From a virus: 6,246 nucleotides of DNA. The stretch spans positions 1 to 6,246 of the IMG/VR virus record IMGVR_UViG_3300007505_000491, one strand, 5' to 3'. Position numbers and translations under genes: made by a program. The notes under the pieces were generated by a model. It saw only the letters and a list, made by a program, of their open reading frames with translations. It did not search any database and was not told where the DNA came from. Positions 667 to 6,246 of this stretch are shown one piece after another (the stretch's first letter is position 1; each line of letters opens with the position of its first letter).

Positions 667-2277
667 CTATAGTGGTGCGTTTTGCTCGCGAACCTTGTCG
701 TAGTTCGCTTCACTTTCATGCACTGCGCCAACTAGCGTCAGCCCCGTGACTGTGATCCGCCCATTGAACGACATGATGAACTGATCACGGGACTGATCAT
801 AGAACGGCACTGTCGACAACGTGGTGGAGACATAGAACTCTTCCGACAGTGTCGGATTCGCTACGTCGGTGGGCCAAACAACTTTTCGGGCCTCAGTTGT
901 GGCATCCGAGGCCGTATAGACGAACAAATCCCCGCCCAGACGCGTGGGCCACTTGAGCCAACGCCAGTTGCGCCGCGCCCAGCCAAACAAACCTTCCTTG
1001 TTTGTGTGGCTGATATCCACGTCACCGTTTTTGACTTCCTCAACCGGCATCGGATTGTTGACGTCTTTATAGTAATTTGGCAGATCGTCCACGCTTGTGG
1101 CGGTGAACCACGGATCCGGCTGGCGCTCGAACAACTGCTCAGGCACAATTTCAGCAAACATCATAATGACGCCGCCATACATATTGGCTGGCAACGAGAC
1201 GTTCACGGACCCCGCAGCCACGCCATTCGTTGCATGCTCATTCAAGTCGGGTGCATTCGTGGCATAGCGCAAGCCCTGCTTAAACGGCACCGTCACCTTA
1301 GAAAGCAAGTGCGGCTGCATCCAGTCTAGATCACCGACATTGAAGCCCGACATGAGGGTATCGATAATCCACTCGTCTGAGTGGCCTTCATATCGCTCGC
1401 GCAACTTGGCCCATGAGACGAGCTTGCGGGCCTGTTCCAGATTGGCGAGCGATACCTGAATACCGTTCTCCGCCATCTCGCCATAAATTTCCGGCGAGCC
1501 ATTCGTACCGTTACCACGCACGAAAATGCCACCAGTCGCGTCACTATCCTTGGAGGACCATCCATAGGCATAATTCAACGGGTTTGGATTTCCCGTCTCT
1601 ACCACGCCGTTGATTGCCTTCTTGACGCCATTGGTTGCGATACCTCGCACCTTAATGGGCTGGGCAATCACCGTTAGCGGTACTTCACCCGCTATCATAC
1701 CCTCGTCAAACGTCGGCACAATCTCCGACATATTATTTTCGTGCCAGAACGCCGGAGCGAGGCTCCCGTCGAGCGGATCGCGCTGATCCAGCGACTTGGA
1801 ACGGTTCATAGCGAGCCAGTTCCACACGGTGTTATAACTCTCCAGAGGCGACGTATTGACCTGCTGGGTCGCTGGCGCGAACAGCCCCAACGCCTTATAC
1901 ACCGCGTTAGCGCCAGCGGTTCCGTATTGATGCGTGGCAATATACGGAATAACCGCCTTGCCGGCCATCGGCTCAACGCCCTGATACGACTTCTGCACAA
2001 ACATCGGATTCTTTTCGAACCGCGCGAGCGCCGAATGCGGGATGAAATACGTCGAGACCGTCGCGAACGTCTTGTTTATCAATAGTTCCTTTGTTTCGCG
2101 CATTTCAATAGCAAAAGGAATACTGCCCTGCGAGCTATCCTCGCGGAGCAGATTATAATAAGCCACCGGCATAAACCTTCCCGGCTTCAACGTTGTTACC
2201 CCGCGCAATGCAAATGTGCGGGTTTGCCGTACCACTGGTACGGGGTTTGTATCCATACGACCGCTGAGAAGCGACAT
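667..2277 (-). CDS. Microviridae major capsid protein (phiX174 F / gokushovirus VP1 family), 536 aa
   Basis: It is the longest ORF. The ATG at 2277 is preceded by GAAGG plus 7 nt. The size and sequence pattern are typical of Phage_F capsids, e.g. TLKPGRFMPV near the N-terminus, ESYNTVWNWLAMN, and ANLEQARKLVSWAKLRERYEGHSDEWIIDTLMSGFNV (the conserved R.Y/...fG block). Confidence 0.93.
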   Translation of the reverse strand: MSLLSGRMDTNPVPVVRQTRTFALRGVTTLKPGRFMPVAYYNLLREDSSQGSIPFAIEMRETKELLINKTFATVSTYFIPHSALARFEKNPMFVQKSYQGVEPMAGKAVIPYIATHQYGTAGANAVYKALGLFAPATQQVNTSPLESYNTVWNWLAMNRSKSLDQRDPLDGSLAPAFWHENNMSEIVPTFDEGMIAGEVPLTVIAQPIKVRGIATNGVKKAINGVVETGNPNPLNYAYGWSSKDSDATGGIFVRGNGTNGSPEIYGEMAENGIQVSLANLEQARKLVSWAKLRERYEGHSDEWIIDTLMSGFNVGDLDWMQPHLLSKVTVPFKQGLRYATNAPDLNEHATNGVAAGSVNVSLPANMYGGVIMMFAEIVPEQLFERQPDPWFTATSVDDLPNYYKDVNNPMPVEEVKNGDVDISHTNKEGLFGWARRNWRWLKWPTRLGGDLFVYTASDATTEARKVVWPTDVANPTLSEEFYVSTTLSTVPFYDQSRDQFIMSFNGRITVTGLTLVGAVHESEANYDKVREQNAPL

Positions 2278-3477: not shown

Positions 3478-3726
3478 CTATTTTCTACACCACGGATTGA
3501 ACTTCTTTAGACCGCCCCCGCCGCCGCTACTAGGGCGATTATCTTTGGGGCGCTCTGTGCAATGCCGGGCGCGTGGCGCATCCGGCTTTGCCTTCTTAGG
3601 CAAGACTGCCTTCGCTGTAAAGGCCTCTGTTACGCGCACCCCCCTTGTGGGAATGCGCTGCTTGAGTACATCCCTAAGAGGGTCTGTTACCCGCGTCGGC
3701 TCTGGAACGGTCCGTGTATCACGCAC
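3478..3726 (-). CDS. Basic ~82-aa ORF after and overlapping the Rep stop (position analogous to gokushovirus ORF5/VP5); start uncertain, and the frame stays open upstream to a TTG at 4032
   Basis: The frame is open for 184 codons (track ORF 3478..4032), of which about 80 lie beyond the Rep stop. It contains no ATG. A GTG at 3726-3724 overlaps the Rep stop (GTGCGTGA) but has only a weak GAGAC RBS. The product is Arg/Lys/Pro-rich (…AKAVLPKKAKPDAPRARH…SSGGGGGLKKFNPWCRK). The stop TAG is embedded in the RBS of the next gene. Confidence 0.3.
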   Translation of the reverse strand: MRDTRTVPEPTRVTDPLRDVLKQRIPTRGVRVTEAFTAKAVLPKKAKPDAPRARHCTERPKDNRPSSGGGGGLKKFNPWCRK

Positions 3727-4972
3727 CGTCTCGTCGAGGTCCGAGCCCGTCGTCTCTGAGAGAGAACGCGCCGGGCCACGGGAAATCCCATGCGTTTCGT
3801 CTCTGGACGGGGATCGAGAGATAACTTCTCTCTGCACTCCGCCAGATACGTTCGAGTTCTTCGAAGGGCTTGGCCCAGAACTCGGCCTCGGCGAGGCCGG
3901 TCGTCCAGAGGACGTATTCGAAGAGGCGTTTGTCGTTGTATTCGGGGATGTGTCCTTGTCCCGATTGTTCTTTGCCAAAGTACTGTTTCTCCCATGTAGC
4001 AAGATTGCTTTCGCGCTTGAGTTTAGCAACAATCGCTTGTTCGTTCCAGTACTCTCTCAAAGTTTGCGGACGCTCCATTCTGGCGCGCTTCGCTTCCCAT
4101 TTCGCGTCCTCCTCCCGCTCTTGGGTATCGAGCGGCGTCAGATATTCCGAGCGCCCGATCCGCCCAAATCGCTGATACCCGCCTATAAGATCGCTCTCGG
4201 GTATCGGCACGTCGCCATAAAGGCGCTTCCATTCGGCGATGAACGCCTGAACATATAGCTCCGAGACTTTTCCGCGCATCATAAAGCGCTTCATCTCTTG
4301 CTCCCCGTTATACTTCACCACAGGAAACCTGTATGTGAGGTCGCGTGGCGGTACGCCCGCCAGCGCGCAATCTCTTGCGAGGCCCGTCAAATATTCCGTG
4401 CCTAGTGGCGGGTCTTTGGACATTAGCACCTTTATAGCGTTATTCGGATCATCCTGATCCTTGAGCATATATTTCAGCGCATAACGCACATGAGCGTACT
4501 GCGCTTGTTTGATGTGCACATGTCCTATTGGTTGACCATCCGCATATGCCCATTCTGGGATATGCACCCCGCCGATACGTTCGTATTCATCGTCGGGGAT
4601 TTGTGTGAATTTTTTCCAGTCCGGCAGTTTAGAGCCGTAGAAGTGAAAGATACCGTGCCAGTGAGCGCGCCCGAAGGTCGAACCGTATTCACCGGCTATC
4701 ATATACCGGACGTTATATCCGAAGCGCTTGGAGCGCATTCGTTTGCAGAGCTTTTGCATATCGCTCGCGAATAGCATCACACTATGGAGATGGTCTGTTA
4801 AGCCCTCCCTGCTTTTCCCATACGACAAGCGCAGGGAATAACTCGCCGTGGAGGTCATTGTTTCGGCAATGTTGCGCCCGCACCAATCGCTCACGCGATT
4901 GTCAAGACATTGCCAGCATCTACGACACCCGACCGTCACACCGTTAGCTAACAGGCTTGGACTAACACACAT
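3719..4972 (-). CDS. Replication initiation protein, HUH rolling-circle endonuclease (gokushovirus VP4 / phiX174 A family), 417 aa
   Basis: The ATG at 4972 is preceded by AGGAGA plus 5 nt. The N-terminus MCVSPS...GCRRCWQCLDNRVSDW is the Cys cluster typical of VP4-type Reps. Motif I-like is SYSLRLSYG, the HUH motif is RAHWHGIFHF, and the double-Tyr motif is VRYALKYMLKD (YxxKY). Confidence 0.93.
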   Translation of the reverse strand: MCVSPSLLANGVTVGCRRCWQCLDNRVSDWCGRNIAETMTSTASYSLRLSYGKSREGLTDHLHSVMLFASDMQKLCKRMRSKRFGYNVRYMIAGEYGSTFGRAHWHGIFHFYGSKLPDWKKFTQIPDDEYERIGGVHIPEWAYADGQPIGHVHIKQAQYAHVRYALKYMLKDQDDPNNAIKVLMSKDPPLGTEYLTGLARDCALAGVPPRDLTYRFPVVKYNGEQEMKRFMMRGKVSELYVQAFIAEWKRLYGDVPIPESDLIGGYQRFGRIGRSEYLTPLDTQEREEDAKWEAKRARMERPQTLREYWNEQAIVAKLKRESNLATWEKQYFGKEQSGQGHIPEYNDKRLFEYVLWTTGLAEAEFWAKPFEELERIWRSAERSYLSIPVQRRNAWDFPWPGAFSLRDDGLGPRRDGA

Positions 4973-5084
4973 TGATTTCTCCTATGGGAAAGTGGGAACC
5001 ACGCAATGATTGCCTCGCCTACGTAACCTACTACATTCACGGTCGTGTGTCACTAGATGCATTCAACCGCAAGGAATGGGGTGC

Positions 5085-5118
5085 AAAAAAGCCCACTTCT
5101 AACGAAGTGGGCTTTTTT
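5085..5118 (-). terminator. Rho-independent terminator (bidirectional by symmetry) ending the endolysin / tRNA-like transcription unit upstream of Rep
   Basis: The minus strand reads AAAAAA-GCCCACTTC-GTTA-GAAGTGGGC-TTTTTT. This is a perfect 9-bp GC-rich stem with a 4-nt loop and a U6 tract, 25 nt downstream of the CCA of the tRNA-like element. Confidence 0.85.
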
Positions 5119-5143
5119 GCCTCAGACGCCGTATGGCTTAATT

Positions 5144-5247
5144 TGGTGGACCGGGCAGGGGTCGAACCTGCGCGTGCTCCCTCCGCTGGATATACCAGCA
5201 GACGCCGAGAACGGGTTAATAACCCTTCACGCTCCTCTTTCCGGTCC
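5144..5247 (-). ncRNA. tRNA-like element (104 nt) with encoded CCA; acceptor/T-arm mimic lacking a canonical anticodon loop
   Basis: On the minus strand, GGACCGG (5247-5241) pairs 7/7 with CCGGTCC (5154-5148). The T arm is GCAGG-TTCGACC-CCTGC (5171-5155), followed by discriminator A (5147) and CCA (5146-5144). The interior 69 nt hold hairpins GGGTT-ATT-AACCC (5225-5213) and UCUGCUGG-UAUAU-CCAGCGGA (5202-5182). There is no 7-nt anticodon loop, no U8 and no G3-U70. Confidence 0.55.
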
Positions 5248-5502
5248 ATAGGCTAAGGGCTACGCCCTCGCGTCGTTCAAATTGTGGCTCCTCGCCATGC
5301 TCGCCCAGGCGCTTCGCTCTTGGGCTGTGCGTGGCTCCGGTGCCGCTACGCGAATTTGCACTTTGCTACCCCTTGCTCGGCGCAAGCCATTCCCCGGCCA
5401 ACTATGTTGGCCGAGGATGGGCTTAACTTACGATGTACACGGCCACAAATGTTATTGCCAGAGCAAGTAACAGACCGTGGAACATGCCGCTGAGAAGCGG
5501 CA
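5248..5502 (-). other. Structured non-coding region between the 69-aa ORF and the tRNA-like element (candidate origin / leader / att region)
   Basis: No convincing ORF is present. The hairpins are 5484-5503 (7 bp, at the stop codon), 5392-5416 (11 bp, loop AUA in minus sense) and 5255-5269 (6 bp). The last two each contain a pair that is G-U in minus sense but an A-C mismatch in plus sense. Confidence 0.45.
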
Positions 5503-5712
5503 TTACACCAGCACCTTTTGACCAAGGCGCTTAGAGAGGCCGGTTGAGCCTTCGGCATACGCGATGGCACGAGCATCGCCCACCGGGCAAGCGTCTTGAC
5601 GCTCGACTAAGCCAACATGTAGCGCAAAGGCTTTCTTGTTGGCTAGCAAGGTCTTTTTTGCGGCTTTAGCCGCTTCATCGCTGGAGATTTTTACGGACGG
5701 AGTATCGCTCAT
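5503..5712 (-). CDS. Hypothetical 69-aa protein overlapping the last 38 nt of the endolysin gene
   Basis: The ATG at 5712 is preceded by GAGGT plus 8 nt. The product is MSDTPSVKISSDEAAKAAKKTLLANKKAFALHVGLVERQDACPVGDARAIAYAEGSTGLSKRLGQKVLV. It is soluble and Ala/Lys-rich, with no motif I recognise. Confidence 0.45.
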   Translation of the reverse strand: MSDTPSVKISSDEAAKAAKKTLLANKKAFALHVGLVERQDACPVGDARAIAYAEGSTGLSKRLGQKVLV

Positions 5713-6196
5713 CTTTCGTTACCTCATATGGTGCTTCGCTCACACGCTCGCGCCAATCGCGAAGCTCCCAGTGAGCGGGATCCCACCCCACTTTGCTAAT
5801 ACGGGGCTGTCCCTTACGGAACCAATCCCCTCCCCACACAATATCTATATTGCGCTGAATGGCAATCTCTTTTCCGACTTCTCCAAAAATAAGCCACTCA
5901 TAGTCACCCATATCCCACGCATATATGCTGTGAACGAGGTCGACGGCAAAGGCCATATGGGGCCACTTGCCATCATCTGGGCTATCTTTTGAAAAGCCGT
6001 CATCAAAGAGCTTCAACTGCTCCTTATAGTCTCTGACGATGGTGTGCGCAAATACAGGTATTCCGCGACCATCCATACGCTTGTAGAACAGCCATATGAA
6101 CTCAAGCAATTGCGGCGCAGCGCCACCGGCAATTGGCCGGGTTCGCTGCTCCGTGAGCTTTTGCGAGCGCACTTGATCGTGGTTAACAATTCTCAT
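5675..6196 (-). CDS. Peptidase M15 family (VanY / L-Ala-D-Glu peptidase-like) cell-wall hydrolase, probable endolysin, 173 aa
   Basis: The track ORF 5675..6235 starts at a TTG inside the terminal repeat. The internal ATG at 6196 has AGAGG plus 5 nt and is the likely start. Motifs read by eye are VRDYKEQLKLFDDGFSK...WPHMAFAVDL (the R..eeQ..L...G.S...H...AvDl block) and IVWGGDWFRKGQPRISKVGWDPAHWEL (the wGGdW...D..HfE block). These would supply the His/Asp/His zinc ligands. The H-to-D spacing is one residue shorter than the classic HxxGxAxD. Confidence 0.85.
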   Translation of the reverse strand: MRIVNHDQVRSQKLTEQRTRPIAGGAAPQLLEFIWLFYKRMDGRGIPVFAHTIVRDYKEQLKLFDDGFSKDSPDDGKWPHMAFAVDLVHSIYAWDMGDYEWLIFGEVGKEIAIQRNIDIVWGGDWFRKGQPRISKVGWDPAHWELRDWRERVSEAPYEVTKDERYSVRKNLQR

Positions 6197-6246
6197 GACT
6201 GCCTCTTTCCAATTTGTTGCTACAGGCACCAGCAAAGGGACGGCGG
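6197..6246. repeat. Terminal direct repeat, copy 2 (identical to 1-50)
   Basis: It matches bases 1-50 exactly over 50 nt, which defines a 6,196-nt circle. Confidence 0.95.

Follow-up and report, generated by a model that had tools for sequence, protein, structure and literature searches.

A tRNA-like element in a microvirus genome

The stretch of DNA analysed here, called the window, comprises 6,246 nucleotides (nt) of the IMG/VR virus record IMGVR_UViG_3300007505_000491. It belongs to a microvirus, and the intergenic region upstream of its gene for the replication initiator Rep contains a 104-nt element that resembles the acceptor stem and T arm of a tRNA (Table 1). Microviruses rank with the smallest DNA phages, and their annotation is usually limited to protein genes. 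The convincing genes of the window all lie on the minus strand, which is the coding strand of this genome, and comprise those for the major capsid protein, Rep, an endolysin-like protein, a 301-amino acid (aa) protein and a 189-aa protein as well as small open reading frames (ORFs). Pfam and PHROG scans of 11 ORFs returned matches only for the capsid, Rep and endolysin, and no recombinase or integrase family was among them. The nearest named relatives, identified by tblastn with the capsid protein, are microviruses from tortoise and bat faeces and cultured Rhizobium and Roseobacter microviruses, and the host is therefore probably an alphaproteobacterium.

Table 1. Positions of the tRNA-like element, its parts and the surrounding features of the window, with the related element of Tortoise microvirus 74.
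Feature	Position	Strand	Basis or remark
Whole tRNA-like element, 104 nt	5144..5247	-	Direct reading, folds, shuffle test
Acceptor stem, 5' strand GGACCGG	5241..5247	-	Direct reading
Unpaired segment AAAGAGGA	5233..5240	-	After the acceptor 5' strand
Inner domain, non-tRNA	5172..5232	-	Minimum-free-energy and centroid folds
T arm GCAGG-TTCGACC-CCTGC, canonical T loop	5155..5171	-	Direct reading
3' acceptor strand CCGGTCC, discriminator A and encoded CCA	5144..5154	-	Direct reading
Trailer, 25 nt	5119..5143	-	Direct reading, relatives' alignments
Intrinsic-terminator hairpin between an A run and a T run	5085..5118	-	Direct reading, Rfam, folding
Conserved 26-nt box CTTGCGGTTGAATGCATCTAGTGACA	5048..5073	-	Right after the terminator; comparison of clade genomes
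Conserved structured non-coding element, a neighbour and not part of the tRNA-like element	5251..5390	-	Alignments A2 and A4, RNAalifold
Endolysin-like protein	6235..5675	-	PHROG 465
Rep, rolling-circle replication initiator, next gene downstream of the element	3719..4972	-	PHROG 942 at 1.8e-26; Pfam PF23343
Major capsid protein	2277..667	-	PHROG 514
Double-T-arm element of Tortoise microvirus 74	L204 5278..5375		Compared with L208 and L209

Read on the minus strand, positions 5247..5144 have the sequence GGACCGG-69 nt-GCAGG-TTCGACC-CCTGC-CCGGTCC-A-CCA, in the order acceptor stem, 8 unpaired nt, inner domain, T arm, A73 and CCA. The acceptor stem is formed by Watson-Crick pairs throughout (7/7, 5241..5247 with 5148..5154), has G1-C72 as its end pair and A-U at 3:70, and is directly preceded by a U at 5248 (position -1). 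The T stem (5171..5167 with 5159..5155) is equally complete at 5/5 Watson-Crick pairs, and its loop TTCGACC (5166..5160) together with the closing base retains G53, T54, T55, C56, G57, A58 and C61. The 3' acceptor strand CCGGTCC (5154..5148) is followed by A73 at 5147 and by CCA at 5146..5144. Position 8 is A. Between the unpaired segment and the T arm lie 61 nt that fold as two simple hairpins, GGGUU-AUU-AACCC (5225..5213) and UCUGCUGG-UAUAU-CCAGCGGA (5202..5182), the second with 8 base pairs (bp), one G-U among them, and a 5-nt loop. Direct reading upheld this layout, from the two perfect stems and the T loop to the A before CCA, as well as the irregularities at position 8, in the 8-bp stem and at 3:70, as they had been described in a first-pass annotation made from the sequence. 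The unpaired segment extended by one base, AAAGAGGA(G), is also a near-perfect Shine-Dalgarno-like purine tract with no usable start codon after it; its part may be no more than to provide the GG for an elbow contact.

In the minimum-free-energy folds of both the RNA and the DNA, acceptor and T arm form one coaxial unit, a stack of 7 + 5 = 12 bp with zero bases between the two helices. These folds are significant (z = -2.9 for RNA and -3.8 for DNA), and the acceptor/T-arm part is kept in the minimum-free-energy and centroid structures of a 326-nt context. For the interior, the first-pass annotation had drawn a D-like and an anticodon-like domain. The hairpins are there, but such a cloverleaf is only an alternative in the modelled structures, in which a GCGUG/CACGC helix encloses both inner hairpins in the minimum-free-energy and centroid folds and yields a three-way junction reminiscent of the tRNA-like domain of tmRNA. 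The two interior folds cannot be separated by comparison, since no homologue of this interior was found among GenBank phages, IMG/VR, plasmids and 5.8 billion proteins.

Chance expectation was estimated from 3000 dinucleotide-preserving shuffles of the window, with both strands scanned. Per window, the T-arm pattern arose 0.029 times; the frequency dropped to 0.0043 when a 7/7 acceptor complement had to lie 30-160 nt upstream of it, and the combination of T arm, acceptor complement and CCA was seen 0 times in 3000 shuffles. These frequencies bear out the earlier opinion that a chance origin is unlikely and that the element is derived from, or mimics, a tRNA. The element is very probably a real, tRNA-derived module whose structure has been maintained.

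It is neither a decoding tRNA nor a tmRNA. The likeness to the tRNA-like domain of tmRNA extends over the acceptor, an unpaired GG-containing segment in the place of the D arm, a long helix in the place of the anticodon arm, the T arm and ACCA, and the 7-bp acceptor, 5-bp T stem and 7-nt T loop with the GTTCRA..C consensus are those of a tRNA. An unusual decoding tRNA or a miniature tmRNA would explain these perfect parts, but ARAGORN, run in tRNA and tmRNA modes, reported 0 genes in the window and in every relative tested, and Rfam scores were far below the thresholds. In a cmscan with a 281-nt search space, the best match was permuted tmRNA at 13.6 bits (threshold 47), with an alignment confined to T arm, 3' acceptor strand and CCA; beta_tmRNA reached 8.3 bits against a threshold of 84, and no match of the tRNA clan exceeded 13.6 bits. 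There is no D stem, the inner loops have 3 and 5 nt, and the sole candidate anticodon loop is the one of 5 nt, in agreement with the earlier statement that the interior cannot decode. A tmRNA would show the G-U of alanine identity at 3:70 and not A-U, and the 104 nt are too short for a tag frame or pseudoknots, both of which are absent. The related element of locus L076, described below, has a 7-nt loop UUGGAUU and scores 22.3 bits against tRNA-Sec (threshold 47), of which the loop counts in favour of a decoding tRNA and the sub-threshold score against it; on balance, an aberrant tRNA or tmRNA is highly improbable. The Rfam families of tRNA-like structures (TLS) gave no match at E <= 10 in the window or in the 281-nt region, and the plain acceptor helix and the DNA genome of the carrier set the element apart from curated TLSs. 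In the whole window, cmscan at E <= 10 produced a single match, the terminator, which aligned to the terminator part of Thr_leader.

A small protein was considered as well. An ATG-initiated ORF of 70 aa (5249..5037) starts within TATGG, and the L076 element also begins with an ATG at the same place. This candidate was rejected: the ORF runs through the terminator hairpin, is preceded by no Shine-Dalgarno sequence at usable distance, and has no Pfam or PHROG match and zero homologues among the 5.8 billion proteins, whereas the L076 frame encodes an unrelated 35-aa peptide. The region is judged non-coding on the basis of the terminator crossing, the missing matches and homologues and the unrelated L076 frame, which leaves the small protein with a practically negligible probability.

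Related elements and the variable slot

A scan of the collected loci (L numbers) for a T arm with an acceptor complement retrieved the window, L075/L076 and one weak match without CCA in L053. The Rep protein of L075/L076, which is found on 7 contigs, is 58% identical to that of the window and the capsid protein 68%. Their element is located at exactly the same junction, TAT|GG, which reads ...GCCCTTAGttTAT|GG (...CCCTTAGnnTAT|GG) in L075/L076 and ...GCCCTTAGccTAT|GG in the window. It has the sequence GGCAGGG-50 nt-GTGGG-TTCGATC-CCCAC-CCCTGCC-T-CC, retains the U at -1 and carries an interior that cannot be aligned with that of the window. In comparison with the window's own type of element (W-type), 5/12 acceptor and T-stem pairs are changed on both sides (acceptor 3:70, 4:69 and 5:68; T stem 50:64 and 51:63) and zero are broken.

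Blastn with the L076 region identified a further copy in Tortoise microvirus 74 (TM74), which matches the L076 element at 86% identity across 71 nt (E = 3e-13) and resides in a genome whose capsid and Rep proteins are ~35% identical to those of the window. The TM74 element lies downstream of Rep, not upstream as in the window. The loop of its inner hairpin, TTCGATT, makes this a second T-arm-like hairpin, and its closing stem has 12-15 bp and is followed by A-CC-G. All three elements present N-CC after the closing stem (A-CCA in the window, T-CCT in L076, A-CCG in TM74), and the orientation is that of the coding strand in all three lineages. The sisters of TM74, Tortoise microviruses 71 and 73 (TM71 and TM73), share 77-88% identity over the greater part of their genomes and do not contain this ~100-nt segment. 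Since short repeats (T)CGGGC flank the segment and the left arm of the closing stem, GCCGGAAGG, is still present in TM71, loss by deletion is suggested. The long non-coding stretch after Rep in TM74 (L204 4700..4880) and its sisters also holds two direct repeats of ~55-60 nt (CAGTCTGCTGCACGAAGTTCAGACCAAAGGGATGCGCGGCAG...).

T-arm hairpins of this quality are rare, with 8 (6 distinct) in 468 kb of microvirus loci. Those of the window, L075/L076 and TM74 are intergenic, one belongs to L207, which is not a microvirus, and the other three were not placed. Eight more GenBank relatives (Tortoise microviruses 71, 73 and 76-79, Rhizobium phage RHph_Y2 and Flyfo Tbat2_98) yielded no further element, and four loose-pattern hairpin matches in them were not mapped to genes. 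The window's own proteins were not found on record, and a metagenome scan returned only relatives at about 24-43% identity, none with an intergenic T arm. The contigs of the nearest relatives, L003 and L004 (Rep 66-75% identical), end before the intergenic region and that of L070 ends inside it; IMG/VR members of the clade are L067 and L068 only. A pattern search of IMG/VR for the double-T-arm type had a sole match, the unrelated tRNA-fragment att site of L207. For copies of the W-type or L076 type, the proposed search pattern is GCCCTTAG, followed by GTTCRANNC within 150 nt. By their sequences, T-arm elements are of at least two types and occur sporadically in three microvirus lineages; they move between genomes and between genome positions, and are dispensable enough to be lost.

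The element is embedded in a frame that is fixed in the relatives and consists of the structured element, a variable slot, a small hairpin with the motif YTGAG, the terminator, the 26-nt box, a variable GC-rich stretch and Rep. In the window, the slot is occupied by the tRNA-like element. In L073 and Tortoise microvirus 75, it contains unrelated hairpins, in L068, Tortoise microvirus 72 and L216 small ORFs, two of which are hydrophobic by eye, and in L082 and L083 it is nearly empty. Because these contents differ between genomes, the element is best described as an insertion into a permissive site and not as part of the core genome. This weakens the earlier argument that so small a genome rarely keeps passengers: slot content varies freely, and most relatives are without a tRNA-like element. 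The slot behaves like a moron-type cargo site. Slots that bear ORFs are located at about 130..440 in L068, 3240..3330 in L002 and 1920..2285 in L216; MRSELKVALIATAIFLVFQIALLILK in Tortoise microvirus 72 is an example of a hydrophobic one, and the short ORFs may encode membrane or lysis-related peptides.

Downstream of CCA, the trailer starts AU-rich (AAUUAA) and contains the small hairpin GCC-AUAC-GGC and the YTGAG motif. This module is kept in L001, L002, L068, L076 and L216, whether the tRNA-like element is present or not, with the hairpin variants GGCC-AUGC-GGCC in L076 and GCC-AAAC-GGC in L002. The terminator hairpin, AAAAAAGCCCACTTC-GTTA-GAAGTGGGCTTTTTT, starts exactly 25 nt (5143..5119) after CCA, the distance given in the first-pass annotation, and folds as a 17-bp hairpin in the 326-nt context; a simple terminator scan did not report this 5118..5085 hairpin. 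The 26-nt box has the consensus CTTGCRG..TGCA..TA.TGACA and is present in every clade genome examined that covers the region. It may be the nick site of Rep or its promoter, and it bears a loose resemblance to the phiX174 origin core. It also contains the -35-like sequence TTGACA/GTGACA.

Origin and possible role of the element

One possible origin, raised by the first-pass annotation, is an attP-type site, that is, a 3'-terminal copy of a host tRNA or tmRNA gene used for integration. T arm and 3' acceptor strand are what tRNA-targeting integrases duplicate, and the weak best Rfam match concerns the acceptor piece of permuted tmRNA, a form found in Alphaproteobacteria. The 25-mer of T arm, 3' acceptor strand and A73 had 0 exact matches in IMG/VR and in 185,579 representative genomes, a set of one genome per species that leaves a strain-specific or unsampled host outside, and no exact copy of a host tRNA or tmRNA 3' part was found in these genomes. 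A relaxed pattern (same acceptor, generic T loop) matched at least 120 loci in genomes, which are ordinary tRNAs; 114/142 matches are tRNA-Asp(GTC), and none resembles the window interior. Of the genuine tRNA 3' halves compared that have the same acceptor, even the best agreed at <=20/25 positions; this comparison left out the class I matches, mostly tRNA-Asp. Blastn of the element against GenBank phages matched only T arms of annotated tRNAs in large phages, and against plasmids it gave zero matches. With no recombinase family matched in any of the 11 ORFs scanned and the 25-mer absent from the representative genomes, the attP reading is unsupported. The element also includes the 5' acceptor strand, which an att core does not need, and Rep homologues were found only in metagenome, IMG/VR or viral records. 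The known lysogenising microviruses have no integrases and use the host chromosome-dimer-resolution system instead (PMC9753089). Taken together, an attP-type site is very improbable.

The IMG/VR contig L207 (25.5 kb) provides a contrast. On its minus strand, at about 1160..1090, it holds a tRNA 3' fragment with the T arm CCGGGGTTCGATTCCCCGG and the acceptor strand, with an ORF a few hundred nt downstream of it that was judged, by eye only, to resemble a tyrosine recombinase. This looks like a genuine att site and shares T arm and 3' acceptor strand with the window element. The attP fragments of temperate phages come with an integrase and with identity to a host tRNA gene, neither of which is true of the window.

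Alternatively, the element could be a functionless passenger, a fragment of a tRNA-like gene of a host or of another phage, captured by illegitimate recombination, whose stems are intact only because the capture was recent. The slot as a hot spot for cargo with unrelated contents in relatives, the absence of the element from most related genomes and its loss in the TM74 lineage, apparently via short direct repeats and without visible consequence, are all compatible with such an event. Neutral decay, on the other hand, sits poorly with 12/12 intact stem pairs, a canonical T loop and CCA around an interior that shows no trace of a D or anticodon arm and is itself well folded. In addition, no donor tRNA was found in representative genomes, IMG/VR or plasmids, two different elements occupy the identical junction in genomes with proteins 58-68% identical, and the L076 type is 86% identical between phages although proteins have diverged to ~35% from the window. 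A mere passenger is unlikely, but it deserves to be kept in mind.

The favoured interpretation is a mimic of the acceptor and T arm that engages RNase P and the CCA-adding enzyme, and among the proposals of the first-pass annotation this one would fit the anatomy best. As developed here, the element would be mobile and dispensable, imitate the acceptor/T-arm part of a tRNA and act as an RNA on which RNase P and the 3'-end and CCA enzymes work, a chain of steps whose chances, taken as a whole, we consider evenly balanced. A promoter scan found none adjoining the element, and co-transcription with the upstream genes is assumed for that reason. The element would then be transcribed as the tail of a lysis-side transcript that ends at the terminator. 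It had been suggested that it might define or stabilise the 3' end of the endolysin transcript; the endolysin gene lies ~430 nt upstream, with small ORFs and the conserved structured element in between.

RNase P binds the stack of T-stem-loop and acceptor and cuts at a fixed distance from the elbow, whatever else the substrate contains (PMC4919913). For the bacterial enzyme, the 3' RCCA and the N(-1) residue matter (PMC12710915). The sequence offers the 12-bp stack, the T loop, the U at -1 and A73-CCA as well as G1-C72 and the AU-rich trailer start, and the unpaired GG-containing segment could form the elbow. From this anatomy and the established RNase P rules, the host enzyme would be expected to measure from the elbow and to cut between U5248 and G5247, after which the normal tRNA 3'-end pathway would remove the AU-rich trailer as far as the encoded CCA. 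The product would be a stable RNA of ~104 nt, tRNA-like on the surface of its acceptor end and T arm only. This minihelix is taken as the functional surface since it is the sole part common to the window and L076 types, and the uneven preservation of the element, with a perfect acceptor, T arm, T loop and CCA next to a non-tRNA interior, is the pattern expected from selection on the minihelix alone. More speculatively, the released RNA might occupy or compete for a host factor that reads the tRNA acceptor end, such as a tRNA-end-modifying toxin or defence enzyme, the CCA-adding enzyme, RNase P, a synthetase or EF-Tu; or cleavage itself might set the ends of the neighbouring RNAs.

A mimic of this kind would gain support from the second element at the same junction in L075/L076 and from the TM74 copy, whose different genome position would signify mobility; the rarity of T-arm hairpins also counts in its favour. 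Several points weigh against it. Our knowledge of the element comes from its sequence. The elements of the window and of L076 may go back to two different tRNAs that were captured independently, and in that case the compensatory differences between them would be uninformative on selection in the phage. Within the W-type, interior and stems have no covariation support, since no diverged copy was found. The element is dispensable, as most relatives are without it, and the sisters of TM74 appear to have deleted it. The ruler geometry for RNase P and the CCA enzyme is not common to all versions, given that the closing stem of TM74 has 12-15 bp and not 7, and the minimum-free-energy fold of the L076/TM74 type favours a long hairpin that pairs the two T-arm-like repeats. 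Finally, mRNA and packaged ssDNA have the same sense, so that the element might instead act at the DNA level.

Such a role was likewise anticipated in the first-pass annotation and, because of the shared sense, is inseparable from an RNA role by sequence. The fold would act in the packaged plus-strand ssDNA, for instance as an accessory to the complementary-strand origin or to packaging, and the tRNA likeness would be a legacy. Compatible with this, the DNA fold matches the RNA fold in significance (z = -3.8), the same slot contains other hairpins in relatives, and the hairpin-rich region lies immediately upstream of the conserved box, a possible Rep nick site. In rolling-circle plasmids, single-strand origins sit in that position, upstream of the nick site. 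All three elements, on the other hand, keep the GTTCGA..C T loop and the N-CC(A) tail, features that tRNA enzymes read on RNA, and we know of no primase, RNA polymerase or PriA origin that uses a T-loop consensus or an N-CC(A) tail. Moreover, the nearly empty slot of L082 indicates that origin function does not depend on slot content. We regard a fold serving the packaged DNA as rather doubtful.

Comparison with known systems places the proposed mimic among several partial analogues. The tRNA genes of large tailed phages are phage-borne, lie on the sense strand and have a canonical T arm, as does the window element with its encoded CCA; the latter differs in having neither a D arm nor a 7-nt anticodon loop and in being carried by a 6.2-kb ssDNA microvirus. 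tRNA-like structures serve as processing or mimicry signals at the 3' ends of plant viruses (TLSs), in the vtRNAs of gammaherpesvirus-68 and in the MALAT1 mascRNA. As in these viral and cellular TLSs, the window would hold a non-decoding acceptor/T-arm mimic that is placed 3'-terminally in a longer transcript and is a predicted target of RNase P and the CCA-adding enzyme. Those structures occur in eukaryotic RNA viruses, herpesviruses and nuclear long non-coding RNAs, whereas the carrier here is a DNA phage, and plant TLSs have a pseudoknotted acceptor and stand at the genome 3' end, in contrast to the ordinary 7-bp helix followed by a terminator. Phage T4 encodes species 1 and 2 (RNAs C and D), stable small RNAs with tRNA-like ends that need host tRNA-processing enzymes; they lie in a true tRNA gene cluster of a 169-kb phage and are likened to the window element by description only. 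Viral tRNA mimicry as such has been reviewed (PMC5723415), and what would be new here is its occurrence in an ssDNA phage as a mobile accessory module. Full-text literature searches found no paper that describes a tRNA or tRNA-like structure in Microviridae, in line with the first-pass annotation, and two papers on related alphaproteobacterial microviruses mention neither tRNAs nor intergenic structure.

If the proposed mimic is real, the exchange of non-coding accessory genes extends to ssDNA phages of only 6 kb, and the acceptor end of tRNA would be worth mimicking during infection, whether the mimicry serves RNA processing, the takeover of host tRNA enzymes or escape from tRNA-directed defences. 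The element would also offer a compact, natural minimal substrate, an acceptor and T arm with a foreign interior, for studies of recognition by RNase P, the CCA enzyme and synthetases. A bolder conjecture, which we hold only at low confidence, is that microviruses of the alphaproteobacterial type trade a family of small mobile RNA genes, mimics of the acceptor/T-arm end of tRNA alone, whose products, once released by RNase P, serve in trans as decoys or sponges and so draw off host factors directed at the tRNA 3' end, whether these attack it or read it. Candidate targets would be abortive-infection nucleotidyltransferase toxins of the MenT/AbiE type and other acceptor-end nucleases. Were this so, ssDNA phages would have provided their first tRNA mimic and their first counter-defence based on RNA.

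Neighbouring elements and other observations

The conserved structured element that adjoins the tRNA-like element comprises GGGGUAGCAAAG, one long irregular hairpin whose tip varies and, with UAG after it, the short hairpin AGGGC-NNN-GCCCU. RNAalifold applied to 6 microvirus copies gave 31 pairs, of which 9 have changes on both sides, and Rfam returned zero matches for it. Further copies are present in L073 (1303..1443), L076 (3963..4101), L068, L083 and L082. The element is a candidate complementary-strand origin or some structured RNA; together with the intergenic cargo slot, it is the kind of feature that routine annotation overlooks. Its 3' motif also occurs in three non-microvirus IMG/VR contigs of 42-47 kb (L077 2172..2369, L080 and L078), in two of which GGGGTAGCA is located upstream of the motif.

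Between the 26-nt box and the start of Rep, some relatives carry GC-rich repeated hairpin units that are absent from the window (L083 4420..4560, L216 2500..2700, L002 3560..3650); one example is the unit GGGGCGTAGCCCC with its flanks, which forms three repeats in L216. The JGI contig L081 (13,773 nt) is a 2.3-fold head-to-tail concatemer of a 6010-nt microvirus genome, and a 10.6-kb contig listed for the window Rep (P0001) is probably an assembly artefact of this kind and not a prophage.

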